From an uncultured archaeon (GTDB lineage: Archaea > Asgardarchaeota > Jordiarchaeia > Jordiarchaeales > Jordiarchaeaceae), in NCBI GenBank assembly GCA_964510585.1, contig CAZECW010000121.1, positions 30,001 to 62,000 of the forward strand: DNA of 32,000 nucleotides, in the 5' to 3' direction. The position numbers and the translations under genes were made by a program. A model generated the notes under the pieces. It ran no database searches and was not told the DNA's origin. It saw only the letters and a list, made by a program, of their open reading frames with translations. How positions within the stretch are numbered: the stretch's first letter is position 1; every line of letters begins with the position of its first letter. This document shows positions 1-30,141 of the stretch, in pieces.

Positions 1-1555
1 ACACGTCCAGCCTTGCCAAAAGCTTCTGTCTCAACTCCTTTGTAAGTTCAACGCTTGGTAGACCAGTATCAAAACTCATTACAGATGCGACGTCGGCCAA
101 GCTCCAAAACTCATGGATGTAGGCGGGTTCACCAAGTACGGTTATGGCTACGTCGCTCTCCTTAGCCTTCTCCTTTACTTCCTCCAAGTTGCCAAGCTCA
201 TTATAGTCTGCGCCCTTAACGTAGGAAACCTTGGTTTTAGGTGAGACCTTGCCCTTTATGGCTTCCAAAACAGTTACTGCTGAAGGCCAGGGGCCGAAGT
301 GGTTTGTCCACCCGCCTAAAAGTCCCTCCAAGTTGTCAGCGTTCGGCCCAGTCACCAGTACGGAGTTCAAATCCTTCGTGAGAGGCAGAAGACCCTCATT
401 CTTGAGCAGCACTAAGCTTTTCCTAGAAGCTTGCAGTGCTAACTCCTTATTCTGGTGGCTCCCCACAATTCTCTGTGTCTCTTCAGGGTCCACGTATACC
501 TTTTCAAATAGGCCCAGCCTAAACTTTACCTCAAGTATTCTCCTCACCGAAAGGTCTATTCTTCTCTCAGATATTTCACCACTGTTGACCAGTTCCAAGA
601 GTGCCTGGTAAAATCTAGCTCCTCCAATTGAGTCAATGTCCAAGCCGGCCAAAACCGCCTGTTTCACCGCATCCTTGTAGCTCTCAGCAGTCCTATGGTA
701 TCTGTGGAGCATCTCCACGCCACCCCAATCCGAAACCACTATTCCTCTAAAGCCAAGTGCGCCTCTAAGTAGCTCTGTAAGGTACTCGTAGGAACCATGA
801 ACTGGCTTACCATTTATCTCGTTGTAGCAGGGCATTATGGATAGTACTCCAGACTTCACGGCAGCTTCAAAGGAGGGAAGATGAACAGTGTAAAAAGTGT
901 ACTCTGATATGTCTACTGGTGCTGTGTCTTCTCCTCCCTCGGGAGCGCTGTAGGCTGGAAAGTGTTTAGCTGTGGCAGCCAAATGTTCTCCATCCACCCT
1001 GAAGCCCTCCCCTCCCTGGTAGCCCCGAACCATGGCAGCAGCCATAACAGAGCAGAGGTAGGGGCTTTCACCAAAGGTTTCAAATGTTCTCCCCCACCTA
1101 GGATCCCTAGCAATGTCGCATACTGGGTTGAGGTTCTGGTGTATGCCTGTGGCCCTAGTTTCTCTAGCTGAAACCTCAGCTACCTTTCTTGAAAATTCTG
1201 GGTCCCATGTTGAGGCCATACCTAGGTTGTGAGGGAAAACAGTGGTTCCCTTAACAAATGCGTGTCCGTGGTCAGCGTCAGTATATAGTAGGAGGGGTAT
1301 GCCTAGGCGGGTCTTCTCTAGGGCGTAGCTCTGGATTGTGTTTACGGTGTTAGCTAGGTCAGTGGCTTTTTCCCATAGGAGGAATGGGGCTCCGGCTCCT
1401 GCATGGTATTTTTCCACGGCTTCTAGGGCTATATCAGGTGTTATCATAAAGAAGCCCGACATTTGTCCCACTTTTTCTTCGACGGTCATTTTTGATAGGA
1501 GGTCTTCAACCCTTTCTTCGACTGTGCGATTTTTGTCGCGGTATATTTCACTCAA
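1..1555 (-). CDS. Glycoside hydrolase family 3 (beta-glucosidase/xylosidase, BglX-like), C-terminus runs off the window
   Basis: Absent from the ORF track because it has no stop in the window. Manual translation from TTG 1555 gives (M)SEIYRDKNRTVEERVEDLLSKMTVEEKVGQM, then TRLGIPLL, FPHNLGMASTWD, DIARDPRWGRTFETFGESP, ATAKHFP and GFRGIVVSDWGG (GH3 nucleophile Asp). Confidence 0.93.
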   Translation of the reverse strand, partial: MSEIYRDKNRTVEERVEDLLSKMTVEEKVGQMSGFFMITPDIALEAVEKYHAGAGAPFLLWEKATDLANTVNTIQSYALEKTRLGIPLLLYTDADHGHAFVKGTTVFPHNLGMASTWDPEFSRKVAEVSARETRATGIHQNLNPVCDIARDPRWGRTFETFGESPYLCSVMAAAMVRGYQGGEGFRVDGEHLAATAKHFPAYSAPEGGEDTAPVDISEYTFYTVHLPSFEAAVKSGVLSIMPCYNEINGKPVHGSYEYLTELLRGALGFRGIVVSDWGGVEMLHRYHRTAESYKDAVKQAVLAGLDIDSIGGARFYQALLELVNSGEISERRIDLSVRRILEVKFRLGLFEKVYVDPEETQRIVGSHQNKELALQASRKSLVLLKNEGLLPLTKDLNSVLVTGPNADNLEGLLGGWTNHFGPWPSAVTVLEAIKGKVSPKTKVSYVKGADYNELGNLEEVKEKAKESDVAITVLGEPAYIHEFWSLADVASVMSFDTGLPSVELTKELRQKLLARLDV

Positions 1556-1574
1556 TTTTGACACCTTTCGAATC

Positions 1575-2222
1575 TTATTCTCCTTCCACCCATTTTTTAC
1601 AAATGTTGACTCCTGCCACTGCGTCTGGGGCGTAGGCGTCTGCACCAATTTTTTTGGCGTATTCCTCAGTGAGTGGCGCTCCGCCCACGATGACTTTGAC
1701 CTGATTTCTCAAATTTGCCTTTCCAAGTTCTTTTATCACGTTTTCTAATTCTTGCATGGTGACTGTGAGTAGGGCTGAGATTCCTAAGATTCTGGGTTTA
1801 TGGTTACGCACTGCTTCTACGAATTGTTCGGGAGAAATGTTTACTCCGAGGTCTACTACTTCGAATCCTGCCGCCATCATTAGGGTTGCGAAAATGTTTT
1901 TTCCAATGTCGTGGAGGTCTCCTTTGACTGTGCCCACGACCGCCTTGGCCATTTTTTTAACGTCTGAGTCTTTGAGGTGTGGGCTTAGGATTTTCATTCC
2001 TTCCTTCATGACTTCTCCGGACATTACGAGTTCTGCTAGGAAGTATTCTTTTGCCTCATACTTTTGTCCCACAATATCCATGCCCTTAGCCATTCCCTCT
2101 GTAATGGCTTTAATTGGCGGTATTCCCTGATCTAGAGCGTCCTGACAGGCTTTCTTCACTCCTTCAATATCCAGGTTTACTACGCTTTCCCTTAGCCTCT
2201 CCAAAATTTCTGCTTCGTTCAT
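1575..2222 (-). CDS. Corrinoid (cobalamin-binding) protein of a methyltransferase system, MtaC/MtbC-like
   Basis: N-terminal four-helix cap followed by the B12 motif GTVKGDLHDIGKNI, plus GISALLT and VIVGGAP; 215 aa. Confidence 0.95.
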   Translation of the reverse strand: MNEAEILERLRESVVNLDIEGVKKACQDALDQGIPPIKAITEGMAKGMDIVGQKYEAKEYFLAELVMSGEVMKEGMKILSPHLKDSDVKKMAKAVVGTVKGDLHDIGKNIFATLMMAAGFEVVDLGVNISPEQFVEAVRNHKPRILGISALLTVTMQELENVIKELGKANLRNQVKVIVGGAPLTEEYAKKIGADAYAPDAVAGVNICKKWVEGE

Positions 2223-2228
2223 TTCGCC

Positions 2229-2534
2229 TCACCAATAAACCGAGTCTAGGGGCTTATTCTTCAAGACAGCCTCAGTCTCTTCGGGTTCCAGTGTTTTTCT
2301 TACTCCTGTTTTGTAGTGCCAGTCAAAGCAACACCACCTAACAAGCTTAACCTTTTTACCCTTAAGTTCGGAAGGCAACTCTTCGCCTGGGGTTCTTTTA
2401 GAAAAGCCAGTTAGTTCAAGGTTGAAGATACACTTCTCCCAAACATTTCCTTCCTCATCTTTTTTGGTCTCGCCAGTTTTCTCAACACTGAGAACCGTTC
2501 CCTGCAAGACTCTAATTTTCTGTTTAGACGCCAT
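2229..2534 (-). CDS. Hypothetical 101-aa protein, first gene of the corrinoid/GH3 operon
   Basis: ATG start, 6-bp gap to the corrinoid gene, beta-rich charged sequence with RWCCFDWHY. Confidence 0.8.
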   Translation of the reverse strand: MASKQKIRVLQGTVLSVEKTGETKKDEEGNVWEKCIFNLELTGFSKRTPGEELPSELKGKKVKLVRWCCFDWHYKTGVRKTLEPEETEAVLKNKPLDSVYW

Positions 2535-2837
2535 TACTTTTCCCCAAATTTCTTTTTAGAACTTTTTCGACCATTCCCCCTTTTATTATTTTTCCAAAAA
2601 TCAGCACCAATTTATGGTTATCCAACAATTTACTCTCAAAGTAAACTTATGCCTTTTTGCAAATATTCGTCCCACTTAAAGTAGTAAACGTGTAGGACTA
2701 AGGGTATAGAGAGAGTATTTAATTGTGGATTACCATTAAACTTATCAATTATATTTAAAACCTTCATATAATAAGTGTATGGATAATTGTTGAAAAGTGG
2801 AAGTTTTTATGAGCAGATGGTTTAAGGGGCATAAGCT

Positions 2838-3917
2838 GTGAAGCCGCGTGAACGAGTTCTCAGAGCCCTAATGCACGAGGAACCGGACAGAGTGCCACTT
2901 TTTGAATTGGCAGTTAGCCCCATTGTTTTGGGCAAGATTTTCAATAAGAAACCCGAAGAATGCCTCTCCATATTCGCGGGTTGGGAAAAAGAGTTTGACC
3001 TCTACGAAAAATTGGGGTTGGACAGCTCCACCGTATACACCCTAATGTTTAGCCCCAAAAATTCTAGAGGACTGGATAAGGACAGGTACGTTGACTCTTG
3101 GGGGCGAATCTACAGCGCCAATATTTCCGCGGGCTACATTTCCCATTTCTATTTGGGTGGATACCTAACAACTCCGGAAAGGTATGAGGAGTTTCCCAGA
3201 CTTGACCCCCTAGACTCTTGGGGCATTGAACAATTTAAAATTGCAGTAAAAGCCGCAGGCGACCGCATACTCCCAGTAGCCGCAGTAGGCTCAATCTGGG
3301 AAGTTCAGGGCGAGGCTCTGGGATGGGAGAACATGTTCCGCTACATTTTCACCAACCCACAATTCGTAAAAAGGGTTCTTGCAGACTCAACCAAATTCTT
3401 AATAGAGCTGGGAAAAGCCTGCATAGATCTGGGGGCTGAAGTTCTCCTAGACTGGGACGACTACGGCTACACACATGGACCCATGATTTCTCCCAAACAT
3501 TTCGAAAAGTTCGTCTATCCCTGCCTAAAAAAGGCGGCCGACACATTCCATAAGAAGGGAGCGTTTCTCATGGTACACTCCGACGGAGACATACGCCTCC
3601 TCATGGACCTCATAATAAAAGCGGGTGTGGACGCCATCCAACCCTTGGAGCCCAAAGCAGGTATGGACATAGAGGAGGTGGCTGAGAAGTGGGGAGACAA
3701 AATTTGCCTGGTCGGAAACATCGACGTTTCCCACCTTCTACCCTTCGGAACCCCTGAAGAGGTCGCAAGAGAAGTGAAAAGAGCCATAAATGCGGCTGCC
3801 CCCGGCGGAGGCTACCTTCTGGGTTCAGGACACCAGATTAACGATTGGTGTAAACCAGAAAATTTCTTAGCCCAAATAAAAACAGCTAAAAAGTTTGGAG
3901 TATATCCCTTGCACTAA
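2838..3917 (+). CDS. UroD/MtaA-superfamily protein, probable corrinoid-dependent methyltransferase
   Basis: RERVLRALMHEEPDRVP N-terminus, DDYG..GPMISP, HSDG, GNID, AAPGGGYLL; lacks the HemE MRQAGR motif. Confidence 0.88.
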   Translation: MKPRERVLRALMHEEPDRVPLFELAVSPIVLGKIFNKKPEECLSIFAGWEKEFDLYEKLGLDSSTVYTLMFSPKNSRGLDKDRYVDSWGRIYSANISAGYISHFYLGGYLTTPERYEEFPRLDPLDSWGIEQFKIAVKAAGDRILPVAAVGSIWEVQGEALGWENMFRYIFTNPQFVKRVLADSTKFLIELGKACIDLGAEVLLDWDDYGYTHGPMISPKHFEKFVYPCLKKAADTFHKKGAFLMVHSDGDIRLLMDLIIKAGVDAIQPLEPKAGMDIEEVAEKWGDKICLVGNIDVSHLLPFGTPEEVAREVKRAINAAAPGGGYLLGSGHQINDWCKPENFLAQIKTAKKFGVYPLH

Positions 3918-4029
3918 AAATTATTTCCTACTTAAGGGTGCCAAAATTGGTAATAGAACCAAGCCATGTTCTGATAAAGTTTCGTTGAGAAATTGTGAAT
4001 GGTAATTCGTCTGTGAAGTGGTGGAATTT

Positions 4030-5070
4030 ATGGACTCTAGGGAGAGGATTTTAAGAGCGTTGTATGGTGAGGAGCCGGACGCTGTTCCTCTTTTCGAGAT
4101 TGAAATTAATGTTCCCATAGTGAGGCAAATTTTGGGCAGAACTCCTAGCGACGCTTTGGACTTTTATGAGGTTTACAGTAGCTGTGGGTTGGATGGGATA
4201 AATTTTTGGGACAATTTTAGGCTCGTGAAGCCTCTGGACGAGAAGTCCTTCATTGATGATTGGGCCAGAATATGGTCAATTGAGGAGAACGAGGTTATCT
4301 ATTACGTGAGGGGAACAATTGATAGTGAGGAAGATTTTGAAAAGTTCAACCCACCCGACCCATTCGATTATGATAGGTTGGACAGGCTCAGAAAGGTGAT
4401 AAAAAATAATAAAAACAGGTTGGCGGTTGTGGGCGGAATACATGACGCCTTTGAAATACCATCCCAGATGAGGGGCGTAAACAATTTCCTGATAGACCTT
4501 TATAAGAATCCAGGCTTTGCAAAGAGACTCATTGAAGCCTCCGTAAATTATAACATTGAGCTGGCAAAAGCCATGATTGACCTGGGAGTAGACGCCCTCA
4601 TATCGGGAGACGACTACGCCTATAAACATGGACCATTTATGTCGTTGAAACTTTTCCGAGAATTCATAGCTCCCTATTTGAAAAAAATCGTCGATGAGGT
4701 ACACCGGAGGGGAGTTCCCTTTATTAAGCACTGTGACGGCTACATCTGGCCAATCCTAGACGACATTGTGAACACCGGAATAGACGCTCTACACCCAATA
4801 GAACCCCAGGCGGGAATGAGCTTAAGGGAAGTCAAAGAAAAATATGGTAACAGGATATGCGTAATGGGCAATGTGGATGTGACCAATGTGCTGCCCCTCG
4901 GAACAGTTGAAGACACGGTTAAAGATGTTAAAAGATGCATAGAAGAAGCAGCAAATAGTGGCGGGTACATCCTAAGCTCCAGCAACTCAATCCACAACGC
5001 AGTCAAAATTGAAAACTTCAAAGCCATGATTAAAGCCACAAAAAAATATGGAAAATATCCCCAAATTTAA
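4030..5070 (+). CDS. Second UroD/MtaA-superfamily protein, paralogue of 2838-3917
   Basis: RERILRALYGEEPDAVP, DDYA..GPFMS, HCDG, GNVD, SGGYILSSSNSI; ATG 4030 follows a GGTGG RBS-like stretch. Confidence 0.88.
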   Translation: MDSRERILRALYGEEPDAVPLFEIEINVPIVRQILGRTPSDALDFYEVYSSCGLDGINFWDNFRLVKPLDEKSFIDDWARIWSIEENEVIYYVRGTIDSEEDFEKFNPPDPFDYDRLDRLRKVIKNNKNRLAVVGGIHDAFEIPSQMRGVNNFLIDLYKNPGFAKRLIEASVNYNIELAKAMIDLGVDALISGDDYAYKHGPFMSLKLFREFIAPYLKKIVDEVHRRGVPFIKHCDGYIWPILDDIVNTGIDALHPIEPQAGMSLREVKEKYGNRICVMGNVDVTNVLPLGTVEDTVKDVKRCIEEAANSGGYILSSSNSIHNAVKIENFKAMIKATKKYGKYPQI

Positions 5071-6164
5071 GTTAAGTCCGAGTTAAGTATATATCTACGT
5101 TTCTCATATTTATGTATTATGTTGCCGCAGAAGTTAACCTTATCTAGGAAAGAAGAGGCGGAAATCAGGAAATTCATGGCAGAAACCAAAAGCAAGGAGG
5201 AGTATAGAAGGGCGGAGGCAGTCCTTTACAAGGCGGAGGGACTCTCCTACAGAGCCATCGCAAAGAAGATGAACGCAGCATACCTCTCCGTCTACAAGTG
5301 GATCCAGAGATACAAGGAGGGAGGGGTGAAAGCCCTCCGCACCAAAACCCGCCCAGGAAAAAAGCCCAGAATAACCCCTGAACAGAGGAAAGCCATAGTT
5401 CAAACCGCCCTCCAAAGTCCCCAGGCCTTCGGCTACCTCAAAAACGAGTGGAGCGTAAGGCTCCTTGCAAAACACCTCACCCAGAAGATGGGAATCCCGA
5501 TAAGCAAGACCCACGTGTGGGAAATCCTCCACGAGCTAGGCATAGCCTACAAGAGAGCTAAAGCTGTGGTTGAGAGCCCCGACCCCGAATACCCGGAGAA
5601 AGCCCGCCGAGTGGAGGGCTACAAGAAAATTGCTCCCGCGCTCCTTAAAAAGGGGTTGCAGTAGCCTTTGAGGACGAGAAGTGGCTGGAACTCAACCCCA
5701 TAATAGGGTCTGGGTGGATGCCCCGAGGAGAGCAAAGGAGGGTTCCCACGCCAGGCGTTAATCGGAGGATAAACACCTTCATAACCTTGCTCTGGCCCTC
5801 CAAGAAGAAGCTCCACCATATCCGCAGGAGGAGGAGAAGCCGAGAATTCAAAGAGCACCTACAACAGCTGCTAAGGTACATAAAGAGGCACAGACTAAAG
5901 AGGATCATCCTCATCATGGACAATGCAACAATCCACCGTAGCCGGGAGACCATGCAGTTCCTTGAGAAACACGCGGAGAAAATAACCCCCTTCTATCTGC
6001 CGAAGTACGCCCCGCGGCTCAACGAGGTTGAAGGCCGGGTGAACAGACACCTCGCACGCGACGTGTGCACAAACCACAACTATCAAAGTATTGAAGACCT
6101 AGAGAAAGCAACAAGAAAATATATAAGAAAGCTCAATAGATATCACAAATAATCGGACTTAACT
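5070..6164 (+). mobile_element. IS630-family insertion sequence, apparently intact
   Basis: Perfect inverted repeat AATTTAAGTTAAGTCCGA (5064-5081) / TCGGACTTAACTTAAATT (6153-6170), which includes a TA target duplication (5068-69, 6165-66). HTH ORF followed by a DDE ORF in the -1 frame. Exact boundary (TA vs TTAA duplication) is inferred. Confidence 0.9.
5119..6152 (+). CDS. IS630 transposase split over two frames (orfA 5119-5664 HTH; -1 frame DDE domain), about 344 aa if fused
   Basis: orfA has tandem HTH domains (GLSYRAIA, VYKWIQRY, RPGKKP). The -1 frame gives VAVAFEDE...IMDNATIH...PKYAPRLNEVE, the IS630 DDE triad. Confidence 0.88.
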
Positions 6165-6231
6165 TAAATTATAAAGAACACCCTTCTTTGGGTCAGATTT
6201 GCTACATATGGTCCTGAAACATTTAATGCAC

Positions 6232-6621
6232 TTATTTTTTCGTCTTCTTTACTTTTTGGACAAAGTCACTTACAACCTCAAGCAGTTCCACCATTTCTAG
6301 CAGTTCCCCCTCTCCGATACGGTAAAATTCATGGACTTTCATATATCTCAAAAAAATTAGTCTTTTAGCATGGTTAAAAACTTCGCTGGATATTATTCCC
6401 TCGTTTTTGAGAATTTCAAAAATTTCCCTGTAGGTTGACGGAAACCCTAACTTTTCCTCTGATACTATGTGTTCTACTATTTCTATAAGAGCGTTTACTG
6501 CTTGGAAACACTCCATTGCCAGTGTGTTATAGATAAGATAGTCTAAAACATTTTTGTCCCTCAATTTTTGGGCGTTAGCAAAGTGTTTTTCAAATCGTAG
6601 TATGTTCTCGACAAGCCTCAT
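6232..6621 (-). CDS. hepT: DUF86/HepT-type HEPN ribonuclease toxin with an atypical active-site motif
   Basis: PSTYREIFEIL..GII and R-YMKV-H motif. The likely start ATG 6621 forms an ATGA overlap with the upstream MNT stop. Confidence 0.82.
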   Translation of the reverse strand: MRLVENILRFEKHFANAQKLRDKNVLDYLIYNTLAMECFQAVNALIEIVEHIVSEEKLGFPSTYREIFEILKNEGIISSEVFNHAKRLIFLRYMKVHEFYRIGEGELLEMVELLEVVSDFVQKVKKTKK

Positions 6622-6992
6622 TTCAGCATATCCATTGCTATCCTTTGATATAGCCATGAAGTTTCAAGGTAGTTTCTCAACACAATCCTTTTTATGTTGA
6701 GTAAGAAGTCTTCGTCCCTACAAAAAATTTCTCGCCCATATTTGAGAACTTCAAATTGAATGTGAAGAGGAAGACGGTGAAAAAGAACAACGTCAAATTT
6801 CTCAGAGTACATACTGCCTACCTCAGCCTCTATTTCCGCATCGGGTTCCTTCAAAACAACCGCTAAGTCTATATCTGAAAGCGGTTTTTCAGCCCCCATC
6901 ACGTAAGAACCAAAAAGAAAGATGGCAACAACCTTGGGGTAAGCCTTCATCTGATTAATTAAAGTCTCTAACTTTTCACTGTTCTTCTTCAT
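6618..6992 (-). CDS. mntA: Minimal nucleotidyltransferase antitoxin (MNT)
   Basis: FLFGSYVMGAEKPLSDIDLAV (GS-x10-DxD); translationally coupled to the DUF86 gene. Confidence 0.9.
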   Translation of the reverse strand: MKKNSEKLETLINQMKAYPKVVAIFLFGSYVMGAEKPLSDIDLAVVLKEPDAEIEAEVGSMYSEKFDVVLFHRLPLHIQFEVLKYGREIFCRDEDFLLNIKRIVLRNYLETSWLYQRIAMDMLK

Positions 6993-7064
6993 TCAAACAA
7001 CACCTATGCGTGCTTGTTCAACGTTGCGGAAGTTCTTTAATGTTTAGTTTCTGTTTTTTGGGAA

Positions 7065-7520
7065 TTAGAGGTCTTCTTTAAGGTAGGTTTCTTTAAGGAA
7101 CTCTGAAACTGTTTCTAAGGTTTTCTCCGCTATGTCCACCGCTTCTTTAGCATCTTTCTCAGAGTATAGGTCCATAGGGGTGACTACTCTCCCTGCTTTC
7201 ACTTTTGGATACCTGGCAAGGTAGTATTGGTCCATAAGCCAAGCCAAATCGTGAAGCATTTCTCGCAGGGGCTTCACCCATTTTTCTGGAGCGGTTACTA
7301 TTATGTCTGATGCGAAGAATGCCGAGGGATCGTGCTCCGCTATTTGGGTTACCCCTTCACATGCTAGGGCTGCCTTCATTGCCTTTTCGGCGGTTTGTTG
7401 CGCTTCTAAAACGGCCTTGTGGTATCTTTTCTCCCTGAGGTGAGTTTTTGCCGATTCTAGGTCGATTCCAGCTTCTCTTAGAAGTGCCTTTGCCATCTCA
7501 CGGGTGATTCCAGAAACCAT
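7065..7520 (-). CDS. HEPN-domain protein (archaeal HEPN type with the RYP motif)
   Basis: AVLEAQQTAEKAMKAAL, EHD and LARYP motifs; TAATG overlap with the upstream MNT. Confidence 0.88.
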   Translation of the reverse strand: MVSGITREMAKALLREAGIDLESAKTHLREKRYHKAVLEAQQTAEKAMKAALACEGVTQIAEHDPSAFFASDIIVTAPEKWVKPLREMLHDLAWLMDQYYLARYPKVKAGRVVTPMDLYSEKDAKEAVDIAEKTLETVSEFLKETYLKEDL

Positions 7521-7930
7521 TATTTAGCCACCCACACTCTTGAGTGAGAGTATCTTTTTATCTCTCCCCTCTTTTCCATATCTTCAAGGATATTCGTCTG
7601 CTCTCTGAAGAAGCCATTGTCAAATAGGACTTTATATGAGGAGTAGACTCCGAGAGCGAAGGGGAACTTTTCTTTAACCATGAAGTGAAAGTCATCCATA
7701 GAGCAGACTTCCACACTTATCTTTTTCCTCACCTTTAGAGAGGCCCTAAACGCAACTTCACTTATTGTTTTAGCCACATCTTGAGAATAGTCTGGCAAGA
7801 TTACCAGGATATCAATGTCACTGTCCGGCAGAGCGTCACCCCTAGCTTCAGACCCATATACCACAATGGAAACAGCACCCAAACCAACCAACTCTTCAGT
7901 AAAACCGCGTAACTCTGCCTCTCTTAGCAA
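7520..7930 (-). CDS. Minimal nucleotidyltransferase (MNT), partner of HEPN 7065-7520
   Basis: VYGSEARGDALPDSDIDILV; TTG start. Confidence 0.88.
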   Translation of the reverse strand: MLREAELRGFTEELVGLGAVSIVVYGSEARGDALPDSDIDILVILPDYSQDVAKTISEVAFRASLKVRKKISVEVCSMDDFHFMVKEKFPFALGVYSSYKVLFDNGFFREQTNILEDMEKRGEIKRYSHSRVWVAK

Positions 7931-8220
7931 AACCTCACAACCTCACAATATTAGCTTCAAATCTATTACTTAAACCTAGTGAACACGACACTAGCACAGC
8001 CTATACACAAAAGATCCCCCTTTTTAAACTAATTTTTCCAGACTCATTCTTCGAGATCCTTCGCAGCTTTAAATCCTCCTCTCGTAGAGGATAGATCTCA
8101 TGCATTTTCTTGAAAAGGGAGATACCTAAAACAGTTTCAAAAAAGGGTGCAGTCAACAGTTAAAGGGAGCCAAATATCCCAGCTGCATTCACAAATATGT
8201 GAAACGAGTTTCAATAGTAT

Positions 8221-8337
8221 TTATGGTGCTTTCCTGTGGTTCCAACCCTTTTCTTCTATGAATAGTCTTGAAAAACATTTTGTAGCAAACACTGGGAAGC
8301 TCTCTGTCTTTTAATTTTTTTATGGTAATGTGCCTGG
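8221..8337 (-). pseudogene. Frameshifted 3' remnant of a paralogue of the 9752-10564 gene
   Basis: Aligns to 9752-9867. It reads ITIKKLKDRELPSVCYKMF/SRLFIEEKGWNHRKAP* versus ITIKNQDKELPSICYKMFSRLFIKEQGWNHRKAP*, with an extra base in GAAAAAC. Confidence 0.85.
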
Positions 8338-8754
8338 CACAATTTACTCAGCGTTACCTACTGTGGGTGGTGTAGTTTTGTGACTTCCACTCACCCTTTT
8401 TTATGCCTAGAATAGTATTTTTTCCACGCCAAATGCAGATTTTAAGGACTAGTTTGAAGCAGTTTTTACGCTAACCGAAACCCCCAACAGGTGAAGCCCA
8501 GTGAAGTGTTCCATGTGTCTGAGAGCATGATTAGCTGAGGAATAATTTAATTAGCCAAATGGTACTGTACAGGGCGTTTCTGTGTAAGTCGACCGGCTTC
8601 AAGGTGTAGTGGTAAGGTACAGGCTACCTGCACATTTCCATTCTAACCATAGAAAAAGGGTGTATTCCCTAAAAAAATAGAATTTTTTTGGGCGATTTCG
8701 CTTGGAAAAATTTAAAGCCACGCTTCAATAATAGTCACTCAACTGGTGGTTTTG

Positions 8755-8970
8755 ATGGGTGAAGTTATCGAAGTCGTATATGAGAATGGGGTTTTTAAAC
8801 CTCTCAAAAAAGTGAGGTTGAGAGAGGGTGAGTTCGTGAAAATAGAGATTAAGGAAACTAAAAAAGTTACTAAGAGATTTTTCAAAAAGCTGGAAGAGTT
8901 GGAGAAAAGAATCGAGAAGGTTGAAGGTGCCTACAGAGTGCTTGAGGAGTTAAGGAATGCTCGTTGTTGA
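8755..8970 (+). CDS. vapB: DUF104/AF2212-like antitoxin (VapB)
   Basis: [26 protein letters not shown] signature; overlaps the PIN gene start. Confidence 0.9.
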
Positions 8971-9397
8971 TTCCTCTGTTTTTGTCGATTCTCTATTTGA
9001 GAAGAATGCAACCAGAAACAGAATGGCTAAAGAACTATTGAAGTCAATTGAAGGCTTACCCATATTCATCCCAAGAGTTTTTCTCCTTGAACTGGTTTCC
9101 GTCGCAGGAAGGCTTAACATAAGCCTCACCAAAAGGGATGTCGAAGAACTCACCGGCGACTTCGAAATTCTATCTGAAGATTTCTTATTCGAAGAGGCTT
9201 TCAAAATAGTTGAAAAAACCCACTCCAGAGCAGTTGACTCATACTTTATTTTCGCTGCAAAATTAACGAATTCAGCCCTAGTTTCCTGCGATAAAAAAAT
9301 GATTGAAAATGCCAAAAAAATTGGTGTAGAAGCGTACTATCTACTTGAAGAACTAGACAAAATCATAAAAATTATCAAAGAATTCAAGAAAAGGTAA
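8957..9397 (+). CDS. vapC: PIN-domain toxin VapC
   Basis: [32 protein letters not shown] acidic PIN motifs. Confidence 0.9.
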
Positions 9398-9751
9398 AAC
9401 CCAAAAACATTAAACACCAAAGAACAACGAGTATATTTCAGGTAACCATTTTCTACATTGTTTCCCACACAAACCCCAGATTTCCTCTCAACACCCCTTA
9501 AACAAGTTAAAACGGGCATAAACCTGTTGATAGAAGCTATCTCAACATTTGGTTCCTCCAACAAAATCTCTGGAAGACACCCCTACCAATTGGGGGCACA
9601 AACACATCAAAGATGAAAGAGTGCGCACGCATAACCACAGCCTGCACGAACCCCTAAAACACATGAAAATTTACACTTAAACACCTTTGGCTATTTGTAG
9701 AACCCCAAATACTACAATATTGAAAAATGTACTTAATACATTTTAATAGAT

Positions 9752-10564
9752 TTATGGTGCTTTCCTGTGGTTCCAACCCTGTTCTTTTATGAATAGTCTT
9801 GAAAACATTTTGTAGCAAATACTGGGAAGCTCTTTGTCCTGGTTTTTTATTGTAATATACCTGAGAATGTGGTTTATGGTAAATGTTCCAATCAGCTCAA
9901 TATGGTACCTTCCTATTTTAGTCAAATTTTTACCCGAATATGATGTGTCTAAAATGTTTTTATCCTTATCAAAGGTTACCTCGACGAATATTTCGGGGAA
10001 CACTCTTTTCTTTATTCTCCATTTTGAACCAGTTTTAGTTACCTCGCCGCCAATAAATTTCCCTAGCCCATCTATGTCTTCCTCCACCAAAAGGTTGAAT
10101 GGCTCTTTACGTTGTTCCAAAATCTTCTTCATAAGATCTGTTTTTTCGCCATACTCTTTATCAGATGGCTCCTCATTCTTAATTCTGCGTCCAATGAAAT
10201 CCAAAATTATTCCCGTATAGGTGACTGTGTCCTCTCCGGGAATCATGTGGACTCGTTCCCCTGAGAACAGGAATTTTAGTTCACCCTCCACATCCCCGAA
10301 CTCATCTCCATAATAGAAGTAAGAGATGTGCCCATTTGCTTCGGGGAAAAATTCGATGGTAATTGTCCAGTCCTCATTCAACCCCACATCGTCAAATCTT
10401 GCCCCAAGATCCTCATATACTATCCTGTGAAGCGTAGCCTCCTCCAAACCCTTAAACAATGAAAATTTATTGGCACTGTATTCCTCCAATTCCTTCTGAT
10501 GAGGACTACCCACACCAGTTGCATCAATCTGGTTCACAGTAAAAAACCTTCTAGCCCCAACCAT
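9752..10564 (-). CDS. Hypothetical protein, DUF3786-like with a probable internal duplication
   Basis: FFPEANGHISYFYYGDEFG...KFLFS...IPGED resembles the DUF3786 F.LP...W..DEEF...LLFD...ED pattern. A second VFPEIFVEV segment suggests a repeat. Recognised by eye only. Confidence 0.55.
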   Translation of the reverse strand: MVGARRFFTVNQIDATGVGSPHQKELEEYSANKFSLFKGLEEATLHRIVYEDLGARFDDVGLNEDWTITIEFFPEANGHISYFYYGDEFGDVEGELKFLFSGERVHMIPGEDTVTYTGIILDFIGRRIKNEEPSDKEYGEKTDLMKKILEQRKEPFNLLVEEDIDGLGKFIGGEVTKTGSKWRIKKRVFPEIFVEVTFDKDKNILDTSYSGKNLTKIGRYHIELIGTFTINHILRYITIKNQDKELPSICYKMFSRLFIKEQGWNHRKAP

Positions 10565-11812
10565 ACACAACACCAATTACCATGTCTATAAATTAGTACA
10601 AGCATTCCTAAGTTAACAAATGTAAAAAGTCTTTGTACTACTCAAAGAATAATTTTGAAAACGAAAATAAAAAACGTTTGGTTTGAGGCTAAGTCAAATT
10701 CGTACTTTATGTGGCTTGAATGGTACACGACTATCAGGATACCAAAGCTTTGTACTGAAAATTTTGTAGCTCTCCATTTCCAGGTGGATCATAGTCCTTG
10801 GCTAATTGCACATCCTATGGTAGTTCCTATCTTTTCCTCCACTGCAGTACAAACAATTTCTGAAATATGGTGAAACCAAACATAACATACAATGTATCCA
10901 AGGCTGATATAATTAAATGGCATGTAGTTCCACGCCGTTTGTAGCAGGTTCGACCTATTTTCCGCACATTTGTGAGTGTTATGATAGTGTTTGTTGTTTT
11001 CTCAAGTGTTTAACCGTAACTTTTGAGTTAAATATATTATGAAGCTTAGAATCCGTAGGAAAAATGGCTGCTCATGCTTGGAGGGACTAAACCCTGAGGA
11101 AAACATCAGAATCTGAAAATGGATTTCAAACCAACTAGATATAATGCTTCAAATACTGAGTTTAGTAGCTCCTATTATTTTAAGGTGCAGCTGGTTTGGA
11201 GTGGGGTTTACTGAATCAAGAAGAGGCGTATACACCTCATAATAAAGACCCCGGGTTACTACACGATACATGAGTTAGCAGTTACAATACTTGAAAGCTT
11301 CAACCTAGATCTGGACCACCACTTTGAATTCTATGACACATTGATTGGCCTGTAGCTTCCATCGCCTTTGAGAGGGCGGAAGCAAGCCTCCTTATCGTAG
11401 ACATGATATGTAGCACAATGTTCTCCAAGGGACGCAAAAACAATTGTACACAATATAGATGAAATTACGATATCAAGGGGCCTTCAGAAATATCGGGGAC
11501 TACCTTTTGCTAATTTTTGACTACGGAAACTTCTGGATCTTTCTAGTAGAACTGGTGCAAGTGCAAGATGAAGGGTTAAAGAGACCGGAGATAATCGAAT
11601 CTGTGGGTGCCTCACCGGTTCAATATCCTGAATGCAAGCCCAAATAGAAATTGAGAAGGACTTTCCTGAAATTGAAAAACATTCGGAGCTGAAGAATGAG
11701 CTGAAGTTATGAGGAGAGAACCTCAAAAATAATAGAAGAAATGATGAAAAAGGGAAAAAGGATAAACGAAGCCAGAAAATTTCACCCAAGACCTAAATGA
11801 AATTGAGTGACG

Positions 11813-11949
11813 TGCTTTGTTGCACAATTTTACTTTTTCGAATGGATTTATTTAATATTCCTAATTTTTTCAGATTAATATTGTGAAATTGCAAAAAATT
11901 CATCAAAATATATAAATAAATAAAAAAAATAAAATTATGCAACACAGCA
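11813..11949. mobile_element. MITE copy 1 (137 bp), IS1595-type ends
   Basis: TIRs TGCTTTGTTGCACAATTTT / AAAATTATGCAACACAGCA; 8-bp flanking repeat GAGTGACG (11805-12) / GACTGACG (11950-57); interior homologous to 30796-30934. Confidence 0.9.
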
Positions 11950-12163
11950 GACTGACGGAAAAGTTTTTACGCAAATTATATCGATAACATTTAAGAAATG
12001 CTGACTGACTGGGCCAATTATATTTTAATATTACACTATTCCATCAATAATTTTAATATGCACTTTAGAAAAATAATCTTGGAGGAGTAAGTGTCTTTGC
12101 GTCATCATTCACTTTGTCTGAAATAATTGATGAGGCAGTTAGTTTTTGTGGAGTGTTGTTTTT

Positions 12164-15130
12164 ATGGGTGCCGTGAATTTTTCTGGTTTGGTTGACTTAA
12201 CTCCTAGTTATCATGTTAAGGTTTGGCTGGTTAATTGTTTTGTTAAGGGCTTGACTGAAATTGGAAATGTTGATGAGGCGGTTAAGGTTGTTTCTGCTTT
12301 GCCGGACTCTGCGTGGCGACTGCAAGTTTTATCGGAATTAGCTTACCGTCTGGCTGAAAAGGGAGATTGCGAGGGCGCCTTGAAAATTTTTGTGGATTTC
12401 AAGGACGATGACATTGTACTGGATCATCTCCTAGATATTGGAAAGTGTGTTTATGAGAATGTTGAGAAGGTGCTGAATACTTACAATATTAATGGTGAAA
12501 GGGTGAGGCGGGCGGTCACCAGACTTGGAAATTATTGGCTACTTGAGTGGTTTAGACTTATCGCTAGGGCGGGAAGAGTGGATGAGGCACTGGAAGCTTT
12601 GCGAAAGTTTGAGGAACACCACTACCGCGCAGAGGGTTTGTTAAAGGTAGCAACAGCCTTGGCGGAGAAGGAAGATCAACGATATGGAGAGGTTTTGGAT
12701 GAAGCCCAGAGGGTTGCCGATAGCATTTCCAATACAGATTATGATGACATAATCTCTGATGCGGCTGAAGAATTAGCATCTGTAGGGAAGAATGACAAGG
12801 CTCTTGATTTGGCTTACAAGATTTTTGACGATTTCCGGTTAGCTGAAACCCTAACTTACTGTCTTAAGTATTTTGAAGGAGAACTATTCGAGAGTACTGT
12901 TAATGAAATTCTTGAAATTGTTGATCCACTCCCCTGGGCAGATAGAGATTACCTTTTAACTAACCTTTTCTCTATTGCTGCCACGAAGAAGGAGTTAAAT
13001 AAGTCTCTTCTTAAAAGGATTATTGAGAAAACGGAACCTGAAACTCTTCAAGGCGCAATGCAAGTTGTTTACGCCTCTAGGCTTGCGAAAGGGGGTGATG
13101 AAGAGGCGGCAAAACTATACAGGGAGGGTATGGAAAAGTTGAGGAAGATGAAGTGGGAAGAACGAGCCGACATAGCTATTACTTTAGTACCGCTTATACC
13201 TCCCGCCTTCGTAGATGAGTTTGTTAAGTTTGTAAAAGAGATTCCAGATATCAGAAACCAAGCCATAATTCTCCGCGAAGTATCTTTGCTTCAAACTGCC
13301 ATGGGAGAGATTGATAATGCTTTGAAGATAGCTAGAAGCATACCTGTGTCATCGGATAGTTCCGCATCCCTATTTGGTATAGTTCGAGCCCTATCTAAGG
13401 AGAATTTTGAGAAAGCCCTAAACATTGCTGGAGAGATACAGGATAAGAATTGGCGTGTGGCCGCATTATCCATAATCTTCGCCGATGCATTAGAAAGGGG
13501 AGAGTTCAAAGAGGAGCTTTTCAAAAAAATTCTATCCAGTCAAATCAGGGGAAATGAGAGAGACGCACTCTTAATCCTTGAGCAAGTAGTTATTGCTCTA
13601 GTTAAGTCTGGGAGGAAAGAGTTGGAGGAAGTAGTTAAACTAGTGTGTGGGCTCGACCAGCTGAAAACCTTGGAAAATACCTTAAAATTTTTATCCAAAG
13701 ATAGTTTGGAAGATGCCCTAAAGGAAGCCAGAAAGGGGCTGGGAGTTATAAAGCCGCTGGCTCTCTCTGCAGTAGCTATAAAGGCTTACAAGTCTAGGGC
13801 GGCCGTCTCCCTAAAGAGGATTTTTGAGGAGGCTATGAAGGAGGCTAAGAAGATCAAAGTCCTGTATGAGATCGAAGCGGTCTACACCGTGATAGCCTCA
13901 GTGTTAGCAGCGACTGGAAAAGTTGAGGACGCTATTGAGATAATCATAGATAAAATTCCTCCAAATGCACAGATACAAACTCTATCCACTCTCCTCACTC
14001 TCATGCCCGTGGTTGGAAGAGTCGATTATCCGGTTAGATTCCTTTCCAGAGCCACTGAGAAAATGGATTTGCCCCTATTCCGAATCCTTACCTACACTTT
14101 TGAGGAGGACCGCACAAGGGAATTTGAAGAACTAGTGGACTCCTTAATATCCTATGACTTCTTCCCCCTCGACGAGTTAATAGACTATTTTGAAATAAGG
14201 GGGGAGACTGAGTGGTTTCAAAAACTGATTGAGAAAGAGAAGGATGCCAATGAACGACTTGATGATTTTCTGACATTAGGCCTCACACTTTCTGTTAATG
14301 GGAAAATCGACCAAGCTAAAAAGTCCTTTGAAAAAGCAATCGAAGAACTTGACAAAATATCAGAAGAGGAGGACAGAAAGTACGCAGTATATTCCTTAAT
14401 GGCGAACGTTTTAAGTTCGACTGATAAAAATTGCATAGACCTAGTAAAAGACCACATAGATCCTGAGAAAGGTAGGCTACTCTCCACACTTTTTGAAGCC
14501 TACAAACATGCCTCAGAAGGACACGTGGAAAAAACACAGGAAATCTTCAAAGAAATCATTGACAGACACCCAGACTTAGAAGACATTTTAGAATCTATGG
14601 TCACAGTAGCGGGATTAGCAAAAGGCAAAACTTCCACAGTACTCCTCCAACAGCTAGAACCGGAAATACTAAAATTTTTCGACGAAGATAGTGTTTCTAC
14701 AATTTTGTGCCGCTTCATAATCGCCGGCGGCGATCCTGAGGCAACTGTAAAAATGGTTGAAAAAAATTGGGAAGGAAGCTCAGAAATACTAAAAGAAATA
14801 GCATACTATTTGGCACTATCAGGAAAAATGGAGCCACTAATAAAAATAGTGGAAAGCGCAAACCAAAAAAATAAAGAAGCCATACTCGAAACAGTCGCTT
14901 GGCGAATGGCAAAACAGAACCCAGATAAAATCCTAGAATTGGCAGAAACCCTACCAGCCCATACCAAAGACCGAATCCTACACATGATCGTGGAAGTACT
15001 CACCAGAAAGGGAAGGGTCGAAGAAGCGATAAATATCACAAGAAAAATAGCAGCTCATGAAGACTACATTCAAGCCCTGACAAACATCCTCCTAACCTAC
15101 ATAGAAAAAACAGCAAAAATACAAAAATAA
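12164..15130 (+). CDS. Large TPR-like alpha-solenoid protein (~990 aa), function unknown
   Basis: Long open frame with recurring G..DEAL.IA..I.D...R..AL..IA helical repeats and no recognisable catalytic motif. An alternative TTG start lies at 12146. Confidence 0.85.
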   Translation: MGAVNFSGLVDLTPSYHVKVWLVNCFVKGLTEIGNVDEAVKVVSALPDSAWRLQVLSELAYRLAEKGDCEGALKIFVDFKDDDIVLDHLLDIGKCVYENVEKVLNTYNINGERVRRAVTRLGNYWLLEWFRLIARAGRVDEALEALRKFEEHHYRAEGLLKVATALAEKEDQRYGEVLDEAQRVADSISNTDYDDIISDAAEELASVGKNDKALDLAYKIFDDFRLAETLTYCLKYFEGELFESTVNEILEIVDPLPWADRDYLLTNLFSIAATKKELNKSLLKRIIEKTEPETLQGAMQVVYASRLAKGGDEEAAKLYREGMEKLRKMKWEERADIAITLVPLIPPAFVDEFVKFVKEIPDIRNQAIILREVSLLQTAMGEIDNALKIARSIPVSSDSSASLFGIVRALSKENFEKALNIAGEIQDKNWRVAALSIIFADALERGEFKEELFKKILSSQIRGNERDALLILEQVVIALVKSGRKELEEVVKLVCGLDQLKTLENTLKFLSKDSLEDALKEARKGLGVIKPLALSAVAIKAYKSRAAVSLKRIFEEAMKEAKKIKVLYEIEAVYTVIASVLAATGKVEDAIEIIIDKIPPNAQIQTLSTLLTLMPVVGRVDYPVRFLSRATEKMDLPLFRILTYTFEEDRTREFEELVDSLISYDFFPLDELIDYFEIRGETEWFQKLIEKEKDANERLDDFLTLGLTLSVNGKIDQAKKSFEKAIEELDKISEEEDRKYAVYSLMANVLSSTDKNCIDLVKDHIDPEKGRLLSTLFEAYKHASEGHVEKTQEIFKEIIDRHPDLEDILESMVTVAGLAKGKTSTVLLQQLEPEILKFFDEDSVSTILCRFIIAGGDPEATVKMVEKNWEGSSEILKEIAYYLALSGKMEPLIKIVESANQKNKEAILETVAWRMAKQNPDKILELAETLPAHTKDRILHMIVEVLTRKGRVEEAINITRKIAAHEDYIQALTNILLTYIEKTAKIQK

Positions 15131-15365: not shown

Positions 15366-15631
15366 AGAGGATCATCCTCATCATGGACAATGCAACCATC
15401 CACCGCAGCTGGGAAACCAGGCAGTCCCTTGAGAAACACGCGGAGAAAATAACCCCCCTCTTCTATCTGCCGAACTACGCCCCGCGGCTCAAAGAGGTTG
15501 AAGGCCATGTGAACAGAAACCTTGCACGCGACGTGTGCACAAACCACAACCATCAAGGTATTGAAGACCTAGAGAAAACAACAAGAAAATATATAAGGCT
15601 CAATAGACATCACAAATAATCGGACTCAACT
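15366..15631 (+). mobile_element. 5'-truncated degenerate copy of the IS630 element (3' DDE part and right end)
   Basis: Collinear with about 5899-6164 (AGAGGATCATCCTCATCATGGACAATGCAAC...AATCGGACTCAACT), with substitutions and two 3-bp indels. Confidence 0.92.
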
Positions 15632-18987: not shown

Positions 18988-19896
18988 CTATCTACCTTTT
19001 CTGTTTTTAAGGTTCCACAATTCTTCAGCCAACTTTTCTATGTAGTCTATCTTTTCCAGCCTGTTTTTCCACTCTTCTGGAATCTTCTCCACTCCGTGAT
19101 ATGCTCCGCTTATCGCCCCAGTCATGGCTCCTATAGTATCAGTATCTCCACCAAGGCTTATCGCATAAGTAACAGCATCCCTAAAACTATCCACATTTCG
19201 CGAAAAGGAGTAAATGGCTGCCGGCACCGAATTATATGCCTCTACTCCATTTCCAAGCTCCCTAACAACCCTTCTTTTGTTCGTTTCATTCAGCAACTCG
19301 AAACATTTTTCAATTTTCTGCCTGTAAACTTCACTTCTTGTAAAGTCTTTTATTTTGCCTAAGAAGTCGTATGGATCCAGTTTGATGGATGGGTCGGCTT
19401 TAACCGCTAGTGCTACACTATAGGCCTGTATGGCCGCCCCCTCCATTCCCAGCCCGTGAGCATGTGTAATTTGGCTTTGAGCATAGGCTACTGAACGCAG
19501 CTCTTCCTGATCATCGTAATAGAGAAGCCCCACAGGAGCAACCCTCATAGCCGCACCATTCCCATAGGAACCCAATCCATTAAACAACTGCTTTGAAGCC
19601 TCACTCCACGAATAACCCCTCTTTATCATCCTAAAAACACGAGGCGGACCACTCGCATAGCCCCTCCAAGGCTCCTCCTCATAATTCCTGATAAAAGTCT
19701 GAGCCATGTGGCCCCCATCAAAACCCCCACACGAAATTAAAGATTCCGCCACACCAATCATCATGTGAGTATCGTCCGTCCACCTCCCAGAATAGCCACC
19801 AAACTCCAAGTCCGAAACCCAAAAACCCTCAAAACTGCTGCCTAACGCGTCACCCACAGCATTCCCAACTAGACATCCTAAAAACTTCGTCAACAT
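18988..19896 (-). CDS. ADP-ribosylglycohydrolase (DraG/ARH family)
   Basis: GDALG, WTDDT, GNGAAMRVAP, THAH and GGDTDTIGAMTG motifs. Confidence 0.95.
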   Translation of the reverse strand: MLTKFLGCLVGNAVGDALGSSFEGFWVSDLEFGGYSGRWTDDTHMMIGVAESLISCGGFDGGHMAQTFIRNYEEEPWRGYASGPPRVFRMIKRGYSWSEASKQLFNGLGSYGNGAAMRVAPVGLLYYDDQEELRSVAYAQSQITHAHGLGMEGAAIQAYSVALAVKADPSIKLDPYDFLGKIKDFTRSEVYRQKIEKCFELLNETNKRRVVRELGNGVEAYNSVPAAIYSFSRNVDSFRDAVTYAISLGGDTDTIGAMTGAISGAYHGVEKIPEEWKNRLEKIDYIEKLAEELWNLKNRKGR

Positions 19897-20234
19897 AGCA
19901 ATCAAATTAAAACTAAATGCTACAAATTTTTAAAAGTTTAGCCTATCTTAAATATCGATAAGTTCAATTTTAGAAACTGGCAAACCAATCATATTGAAAA
20001 AGGGCATCCAACCAAGACAGATCCAATTGTGGAAAATTACATCAAAATGGAAATGATATTGAGGCCGCAAATCCGAAACGAAATTTTTTGAGAGAAGCAT
20101 TCCCCGAATTCCCGCATGAAAAGGGCTGGGTAGTTGAATAACACTGAGAAAGTGAAGGAAGAGAGCATGGATGAGTGAAGGAAGTAGGAGACTAACAGAA
20201 AACGAAGCCTTAAATTTAGAATGGAGGTTCAATC

Positions 20235-29868: not shown

Positions 29869-30141
29869 TCACGAACCGAAACATACCATTGTATAGAATC
29901 CATATTGGTAGCCCCATTCCCAAGCGTCATTCCTTAATCCGCTAAGTAACCAATTGTTATAAATCGCATAGCCTAGTAAACCACCCACTGTTATTATGGG
30001 AACGTATTGAGTATAGGGGTTGGGTAATCCCTGAACGAAGACACCATTATAAAGAACATAGCCAATTAAATAAATGGAGCATGTTGCCAATATTCTTCTA
30101 AACTTAATATTACGATTTCTGCGTAGACCTCTCCTTTCCAT
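29869..30141 (-). CDS. Hypothetical membrane protein (may be the frameshifted tail of 30110-30640)
   Basis: Two hydrophobic segments; 32-bp overlap with the upstream ORF. Confidence 0.45.
   Translation of the reverse strand: MERRGLRRNRNIKFRRILATCSIYLIGYVLYNGVFVQGLPNPYTQYVPIITVGGLLGYAIYNNWLLSGLRNDAWEWGYQYGFYTMVCFGS

Follow-up and report, generated by a model that had tools for sequence, protein, structure and literature searches.

A GH3 glycosidase gene joined to a corrinoid protein gene and two UroD-family genes in a Freyarchaeia genome suggests possible coupling of glycoside hydrolysis and O-demethylation

The left end of a 32,000-nucleotide stretch of archaeal DNA, referred to below as the window, carries a glycosidase gene together with genes for a corrinoid protein and two UroD-family proteins, and the possible function of this gene set is the subject of this report. 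The window covers positions 30001 to 62000 of contig C121 of the genome here called G000 (G000:C121:30001-62000; C numbers denote contigs of this genome). The genome belongs to the Freyarchaeia (Jordarchaeia at NCBI; Asgard archaea) and is congeneric with the complete genome of "Candidatus Freyarchaeum deiterrae" (CP147778.1), and its DNA was found in sequencing runs that are hot-spring metagenomes; no RNA data set was listed for positions 1 to 5100 or 1000 to 2600 of the window. Three of the genes lie on the minus strand. The operon's first gene encodes a 101-amino-acid (aa) protein with an oligonucleotide/oligosaccharide-binding (OB)-like fold and no Pfam or NCBIfam match (small101; positions 2229 to 2534). 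The second encodes a corrinoid protein of 215 aa (1575 to 2222), and the third encodes a GH3 exo-β-glycosidase, with the 5′ two-thirds of the gene inside the window (1 to 1561; Pfam Glyco_hydro_3, 2.4e-72). Beyond an AT-rich divergent spacer of 303 bp (2535 to 2837), which presumably holds promoters for both transcription units, two plus-strand genes encode candidate substrate-side methyltransferases (methyltransferase 1 [MT1]): UroD_A (2838 to 3917; 359 aa; PF01208, 6.7e-35) and UroD_B (4018 to 5070; 350 aa; PF01208, 3e-42). The open reading frame (ORF) listing, Pfam scans, and the sequence itself bore out the five genes, their families, the tight minus-strand spacing, and the 303-bp divergent gap described in the initial annotation of this DNA. 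Only 6 nt separate small101 from the corrinoid protein gene and 13 nt separate the latter from GH3, and a Shine-Dalgarno-like element (GGTGAGG) spans the small101 stop codon. These junctions fit cotranscription of small101, the corrinoid protein gene, and GH3, and they leave no space for a separate GH3 promoter.

The complete GH3 gene (G000:C121:29288-31561) encodes 757 aa and extends 713 nt to the left of the window. The listed ORF reaches position 1648, and the likely start is a GTG at position 1561. The N, C, and Fn3-like domains were matched end to end (Pfam, 5e-72, 2e-45, and 3e-23, respectively), and the translation contains the nucleophile motif GIVVSDWGG; both features place the protein in the three-domain GH3 family. 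It scored under the NCBIfam equivalog cutoffs for BglX and for the exo-1,3/1,6-glucosidase model. The closest solved structures are named β-xylosidases (7zb3 and 8c7f; E ~1e-155), followed by β-glucosidases. Since the N terminus of the translation has no hydrophobic signal, the enzyme was read as cytoplasmic. It is the sole GH3 of the genome; the congeneric complete genome also has a single GH3 (gene _1_116), for which a cytoplasmic location and a value of 14 are given (PMC11291895, supplement), and more than 10 GH3 transcripts were reported in wetland metatranscriptomes (PMC11291895, supplementary text). The Freyarchaeia genome paper assigned a BglX-type enzyme to cellodextrin breakdown, mentioned MttB-like and MtrH genes along with "yet unknown methylated substrates," and predicted the use of lignin-derived compounds; it contains no description of the GH3/corrinoid/UroD cluster (PMC11291895).

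The corrinoid protein was matched by PF02607 (1.5e-21) and PF02310 (5.8e-29) and contains the DxHxxG motif as GDLHDIG (base-off/His-on). Among NCBIfam models, TIGR02370 scored 194.5 bits and MtgC/MtbC-like models matched, and in the PDB, structures 1y80, 7xcn, 4jgi, and 3ezx matched at 1e-43 to 1e-51. By these comparisons the protein resembles the methyltransferase-cognate carriers MtgC, MtbC, and MttC. The remaining components of a corrinoid methyltransferase system were found by a genome search. Four to five MtrH homologues are encoded on C29, C208, C99, and C71, none of them in the window, and two homologues of the RACo activase, with 43 to 45% identity over the full length, are encoded outside the window on C99 and C33. 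The window thus holds half a system only, with the MtrH-like second methyltransferase (methyltransferase 2 [MT2]) and the reductive activase encoded on other contigs. Orthologous genes at three loci (L043, L123, and L125) have MtrH and RACo (Fer2 and RACo domains) in cis. At the gene level, every component of an Mto/Odm/Mtv-type system is present, namely, a cognate corrinoid protein, a UroD-superfamily MT1, an MT2, and an activase; for UroD_A and UroD_B the assignment as putative MT1s rests on fold and context.

UroD_A and UroD_B are 38% identical to each other. Against TIGR01463 (MtaA/MtbA/CmuA; cutoff, 235.4 bits), UroD_A scored 77.3 bits and UroD_B scored 111.2 bits, and both were far under the cutoffs of the MtaA and MtbA equivalog models. 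Against the HemE model TIGR01464 (cutoff, 303 bits), they scored 32.5 and 39.3 bits, respectively. The nearest PDB entries to UroD_B were MtaA (4ay7; 6e-13) and CdmB (9rui; 2e-11), and a profile built from the UroD_A/UroD_B alignment found nothing in the PDB nearer than MtaA, CdmB, and UroD, all about equally distant. UroD_A orthologues (44 to 96% identity) conserve the motifs HSDG and SGH, while the corresponding motifs of UroD_B are HCDG and SSSNS. The HxC...C zinc site of MtaA is absent from both proteins: HICG of 4ay7 aligns with HSDG in UroD_A and with HCDG in UroD_B, and the distal zinc Cys is replaced by His in UroD_A and by Asn in UroD_B, with these replacements conserved across orthologues. 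The NCBIfam cutoffs and the active-site residues rule out identification of either protein as a true HemE or MtaA. With the cutoffs missed and the zinc ligands lost, the paralogues would be neither coenzyme M (CoM) methyltransferases nor heme enzymes, which leaves MT1 as the remaining role.

The same residues bear on whether these proteins act in O-demethylation at all. They might instead process methyl-S/Se compounds in an mlp-like manner, serve as MT2, or carry out a reaction on a sugar derivative that involves no methyl transfer. MT2 enzymes and thiol methyltransferases do belong to the UroD superfamily, and the mlp clusters, which are widespread and combine several UroDs with an activase and a corrinoid protein, have been connected with methyl-S/Se metabolism (PMC10418091). 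In type 1 mlp clusters, genes for a corrinoid protein and the activase RACE accompany those for Mlp2 and Mlp3, which are close relatives of soluble CoM methyltransferases (Kountz and Balskus, PMC10418091). Judged by that description, membership of UroD_A and UroD_B may be unlikely, given that they are only distantly related to MtaA and lack HxC. The thiol-activating HxC...C site of MtaA reads HSD...H in UroD_A and HCD...N in UroD_B. Further, a corrinoid protein is encoded at this locus and MtrH, a dedicated MT2, is encoded with RACo in related clusters, so that MT1 is the role still missing. A function of the UroD proteins outside O-demethylation is improbable on these grounds.

The 101-aa ORF, entered simply as unknown in the initial annotation, turned out not to be incidental; cross-phylum homologues and their adjacency identified it as a conserved partner of one corrinoid protein orthogroup. 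The 165 homologues (58 to 98% identity; 58 to 80% between phyla) come from Bathyarchaeia, Thermoprotei, Brockarchaeota, and Jordarchaeia and share the invariant residues R66, C68, D71, W72, and H73. A profile search of 1.8 billion representatives resolved the family into 34 clusters at 50% identity, nearly all of them stand-alone proteins of ~100 aa, and yielded no informative fusion. The AlphaFold2 model is an OB-like β-barrel (pLDDT, 85). A Foldseek search with it gave nothing in the PDB at an E value of ≤0.001, and a search of the AFDB clusters gave only its own family; the best VIA-align matches (Z, 5.4), to CsaA, eS28, and Mop-type OB barrels, were at the level of a common fold.

Among 74 species-representative loci, ~28 have small101 directly beside a gene for a corrinoid protein, MtrH, UroD, or RACo. 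The neighbor is a corrinoid protein in ~15 loci, a divergent MtrH in 5, a UroD in ~6, and RACo in 4, and ~40 loci have no methyltransferase gene. The small101-corrinoid protein pair occurs at L043, L046, L063, L078, L093, L101, L109, L110, L119, and L125. The corrinoid protein of the window shares 56 to 78% identity with those adjoining small101 in other phyla, whereas none of its 16 paralogues in the same genome exceeds 48%; small101 and this corrinoid orthogroup thus form a conserved orthologous pair that spans Jordarchaeia, Bathyarchaeia, Thermoprotei, and Brockarchaeota. Small101 may be an unrecognized component of archaeal methyltransferase systems. Among the 74 loci, sugar genes were found near small101 only at the Jordarchaeia loci and at L109, so the sugar link belongs to the GH3/UroD_A/UroD_B set and not to small101. 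Other "MalK" matches near small101 were rejected as generic ATP-binding cassette (ABC) ATPases of 27 to 30% identity. Two small101-bearing contigs, those of L109/L123 (DTPJ01000832.1) and L103 (CALMWN010000141.1), are filed under Poribacteria and Clostridia metagenome-assembled genomes and may be misbinned archaeal sequences.

The synteny survey proposed in the initial annotation favors a functional link between the glycosidase and the methyltransferase genes. Four other genomes, congeneric or related, have contigs that cover the locus, and all of them retain the order small101-corrinoid protein-GH3; GH3 thus adjoins the corrinoid protein gene in every Jordarchaeia/Freyarchaeia locus that extends to it. 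The layout is identical in G003 and G004, and the three-gene order is retained in G005 and in Ca. Jordarchaeum madagascariense. In G005, which is complete and congeneric, 9 kb with two minus-strand genes for immunoglobulin-like (Big_13) surface proteins of 1,854 and 463 aa (L030:4216-11152, corresponding to G005:C1 ~116.2-123.2 kb) lies between small101 and UroD_A; because of this insertion, the divergent spacer is not essential to the layout.

Nor is the association unique to these genomes, since same-clade GH3 genes are clustered with methyltransferase genes in at least three rearranged contexts. GH3 genes of the same clade in other lineages (58 to 63% identity), when traced to their contigs, lie in differently arranged clusters. 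On contig Ga0123519_10006289 (L109/L123), UroD, RACo, MtrH, and GH3 genes follow one another in that order, with 46 nt between MtrH and GH3, and the contig also encodes a CUT1 sugar ABC importer, a further UroD, a UroD_A orthologue (61%), the corrinoid protein (61%), and small101 (63%). On ENA scaffold_526 (L038/L125), one side carries GH3 (62%), an Opp-type ABC transporter with SBP_bac_5, and a sulfatase; the middle carries a UroD_B orthologue (68%), another UroD, and a UroD_A orthologue (79%); and on the other side UroD is followed by small101 (77%), the corrinoid protein (76%), RACo, MtrH, and GH94. The left half of this layout is repeated in L126, from another sample (UroD_B orthologue, 65%). 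In two clusters, then, GH3 or GH94 comes directly after MtrH, 43 to 46 nt apart. The DNA ligase of scaffold_526 is only 55% identical to that of G000, indicating that the scaffold is from a different lineage and that conservation there is higher for the cluster genes than for housekeeping genes. In a GH3 tree, the methyltransferase-linked members fall in four sub-branches of one 30-member clade, with haloarchaeal relatives outside.

Three further contigs were less telling. In the weak case of L127, an Opp ABC transporter is accompanied by GH3, a winged helix-turn-helix regulator, a 99-aa ORF, and a distant UroD paralogue (27%) in that order; the 99-aa ORF was considered as a small101 and rejected. 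The contig of P0139 stops exactly where the sulfatase and UroD block would start. L128, which was chosen for its UroD_A orthologue (63%) regardless of GH3, has a second UroD adjacent and a GH29 fucosidase and PIG-L deacetylase within 6 kb, with neither a corrinoid protein nor a transporter found, and its outcome is ambiguous.

A second cluster in G000 shows a similar combination of functions. On C90 (~2900-11820; L129), UroD, a 160-aa ORF, and a GH38 α-mannosidase gene run in one direction; a UroD, a corrinoid protein gene, and a sulfatase gene (SGSH_C) lie on the opposite strand, with the sulfatase first in the direction of transcription, and another corrinoid protein gene follows in the forward direction. 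Other members of the genus also have the sulfatase cluster, with rearrangement: in the two more divergent species, GH38 is directly beside the sulfatase. Sulfatase, true GH38, and GH3 are each represented in the genome by exactly one gene, and each of these genes is inside a UroD/corrinoid cluster. Counting also a GH1 gene on C39, which is 1.4 kb from a UroD gene, 4 of ~13 located glycosidase and sulfatase genes are within ~2 kb of a UroD or corrinoid gene, against an expected ~0.5 at our own estimate of a ~3 to 4% background per gene. The GH13, GH57, GH94, GH29-like, and remaining GH1 genes of the genome are not within ~2 kb of such genes.

These counts speak to the simplest alternative, that there is no coupling and GH3 is an ordinary cytoplasmic β-glucosidase or β-xylosidase that shares a transcript or a mobile island with an unrelated methylotrophy module. 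The published assignment to cellodextrin breakdown fits this explanation, as do the relatives P0147 and P0137, which have no methyltransferase neighbors, and an IS630 element adjoining the cluster. Some adjacencies would also arise by chance in a genome of ~3,900 genes with ~35 corrinoid protein or UroD genes (~17 carrier-type corrinoid proteins and ~18 UroD-family genes). By a rough, post hoc estimate, the sole GH3 would have a 3 to 4% chance of falling no more than two genes away from one of these; the GH3/corrinoid arrangement exceeds chance, and the adjacency recurs in other genomes. The 6- and 13-nt junctions are too tight for a separate promoter, and at least three rearranged versions of the cluster of GH3, UroD_A, UroD_B, the corrinoid protein, and small101 occur in lineages with only ~55% identity in housekeeping genes. 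The short distance between MtrH and GH3 or GH94 in two clusters and the location of all three single-copy deconjugating enzymes in UroD/corrinoid clusters likewise argue against mere cohabitation, which we regard as unlikely. It is probable that glycoside hydrolysis is coupled with demethylation, sugar and aromatic donors taken together. This coupling, as first proposed for the locus, gained partial support from comparative genomics, although the system in the window proved incomplete, with MT2 and the activase elsewhere.

The gene set was compared with known corrinoid methyltransferase systems. The Mto system of Methermicoccus shengliensis, which has a counterpart in Archaeoglobus fulgidus, consists of the MT1 MtoB, the corrinoid protein MtoC, the MtrH-like MT2 MtoA, which transfers to tetrahydromethanopterin (H4MPT), and the 2Fe-2S activase MtoD (PMC8630106, PMC8359953). 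Given this system, the initial statement that no archaeal pathway of this kind had been characterized was too broad; what has not been described is the coupling with a glycosidase. As in Mto, an archaeon here combines candidate MT1s of the UroD superfamily, in several paralogues, with a corrinoid protein of ~22 kDa, an MT2 resembling MtrH, and an activase of the RACo type, and all four roles are in cis in the related clusters L123 and L125. The candidate MT1s differ from MtoB in length (~350 to 360 aa versus ~420 aa, 47 to 48 kDa) and form a distinct subfamily, set apart from MtoB by description. Unlike in Mto, MT2 and the activase are in trans in G000, GH3 is cooperonic with the corrinoid protein gene, and an additional OB-like protein is encoded; the related clusters have sugar ABC importers, while Mto has major facilitator superfamily aromatic transporters.

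The Odm/Vdm systems of Acetobacterium dehalogenans, MtvABC of Moorella thermoacetica, and the systems of Desulfitobacterium hafniense are similar in having three components plus an activase, with a UroD-superfamily MT1. Their substrates are free phenyl methyl ethers, and we know of no glycosidase described in a bacterial aryl O-demethylase operon; a literature search likewise found none. The nearest solved relatives of UroD_A and UroD_B are from the chloromethane system CdmBCA of A. dehalogenans (9rui; PMC13222342) and MtaA of Methanosarcina mazei (4ay7), with the similarity limited to the C-terminal two-thirds of the TIM barrel at E values of 1e-11 to 1e-15 and, for MtaA, without conservation of the zinc ligands.

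If hydrolysis and demethylation are coupled, the methyl donor could be a methoxylated aromatic aglycone, with GH3 or the sulfatase deconjugating phenolics (coniferin, syringin, or phenolic sulfates) and the UroDs O-demethylating the products. This is the sole chemistry demonstrated for ether-cleaving MT1s of the UroD superfamily, archaea included (PMC8630106), and a glycosidase with a sulfatase is the classic pair for phenolic deconjugation. Downstream of GH3, on the same strand, are genes for an isochorismatase-family hydrolase, a 231-aa protein, a PaaK-like ligase, and the alpha subunit of an ADP-forming acyl-coenzyme A (CoA) synthetase. The PaaK-like aryl-CoA ligase and the acyl-CoA synthetase hint at aromatic acids; PaaK-like genes also lie near other corrinoid clusters on C34, C158, and C208, and the use of lignin-derived compounds has been predicted in the Freyarchaeia genome paper. 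On the other hand, a GH94 disaccharide phosphorylase, GH38, an SGSH_C sulfatase, and CUT1 and Opp/SBP_bac_5 importers would not be expected for aryl glucosides, an aromatic-compound transporter of the type found in Mto operons is absent, and UroD_A and UroD_B are no nearer to any characterized MT1 than to MtaA or true UroD. An aromatic donor is thus rather unlikely.

A methyl sugar donor was favored because the glycosidases are varied (GH3, GH94, GH38, and GH1), the sulfatase is of a carbohydrate type, and the ABC importers are of an oligosaccharide type. Our preferred interpretation, to which we give a probability of roughly 40%, is that the locus supplies the substrate-side half of a three-component corrinoid methyltransferase system of the Mto/Odm type, joined at the operon level to a cytoplasmic GH3, with an O-methyl sugar as the likeliest donor. 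Several observations weigh against it. To our knowledge, the characterized UroD-superfamily MT1s act on aryl methyl ethers, chloromethane, and methyl thiols, and none acts on alkyl (sugar) ethers. Cleavage of alkyl methyl ethers is also chemically harder, since an alkoxide is a poor leaving group. The PaaK-like ligase and the acyl-CoA synthetase downstream of GH3 hint instead at aromatic acids. The ABC importers of the other clusters have no close homologue in the genome, which leaves uptake unexplained. Two same-clade GH3 genes, P0147 (L039) and P0137 (L042), have no methyltransferase neighbor, and most small101 loci are without sugar genes. Finally, unbinned metagenome fragments, whose taxonomy is uncertain, account for many of the supporting contigs.

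A pathway built on an O-methyl sugar donor would have five steps, and each catalytic step, like the substrate, is one that we infer, whereas the gene identities, the operon-like spacing, and the conservation of the gene set with rearrangement were observed directly. A methylated glycoside or oligosaccharide would be taken into the cell, and GH3 would trim β-linked glucosyl or xylosyl residues so that the methylated unit is released or exposed. UroD_A or UroD_B, presumably with different specificities, would then move the O-methyl group onto the Co(I) corrinoid protein, with the OB-like small101 assisting this methyl transfer. The MtrH-like methyltransferase encoded elsewhere would hand the methyl group to H4MPT or folate and thereby to the Wood-Ljungdahl pathway, and the RACo-type activase, also encoded elsewhere, would repair oxidized Co(II).

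The remainder of the window and its surroundings contain mobile and apparently unrelated genes. A frameshifted IS630-family transposase lies directly after UroD_B on the plus strand (helix-turn-helix ORF, 5119 to 5664; DDE ORF, 5718 to 6152). A further IS630 DDE fragment, 84% identical, is ~9 kb to the right (window ~15383 to 15616), and related copies are on C196 and C65. Beside the IS element are two adjoining HEPN/nucleotidyltransferase (MNT) toxin-antitoxin-like pairs (6232 to 6992 and 7065 to 7930, both on the minus strand). Genes for a 994-aa TPR/PPR-repeat protein (12146 to 15130, plus strand), an ADP-ribosylglycohydrolase (18988 to 19905, minus strand), and a P-type cation ATPase (24578 to 27322, minus strand) appear to be unrelated to the cluster. 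The 231-aa protein encoded downstream of GH3 (unk231; G000:C121:27570-28265, minus strand) belongs to a family with ~16 copies in the genome and relatives in Asgard archaea only. It had no Pfam or NCBIfam match, and a search of the ESM atlas returned Asgard hypothetical proteins plus weak V4R-like or ATC-hydrolase-like leads. Copies of unk231 are repeatedly found near genes for PaaK-like ligases and corrinoid proteins (C34, C158, C62, C99, and C105).

The polysaccharides of plants, algae, cyanobacteria, and bacteria commonly contain O-methyl sugars, and we know of no anaerobic route for their demethylation. Marine porphyran-degrading bacteria use a cytochrome P450-dependent oxidative demethylation of 6-O-methyl-d-galactose. 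The system proposed here resembles the P450 system in that a sugar methyl ether would be removed during polysaccharide use, beside glycosidases and sulfatases; in contrast with the P450 enzymes, which depend on O2 and are unrelated in family and mechanism, it would be anaerobic and would conserve the methyl group. A literature search found no paper on corrinoid-dependent demethylation of methyl sugars or glycosides. What is new at this locus is the glycosidase in a corrinoid operon and the OB-like partner, and in the related clusters it is the importers, the sulfatase, and further GH families. A system of this kind would amount to a concrete set of ~6 genes. A bolder and speculative possibility is that UroD_A and UroD_B are the first corrinoid-dependent sugar methyl-ether methyltransferases and, with small101, would enable anaerobic methyl harvest by Asgard/TACK archaea from O-methylated, partly sulfated glycans. 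If so, the P450 sugar demethylases would have an oxygen-free counterpart, and anaerobic methylotrophy would gain a previously unrecognized class of substrates through a system genetically joined to glycoside import and hydrolysis. In Asgard archaea and Bathyarchaeia, polysaccharide breakdown would then be tied to acetogenic C1 metabolism.

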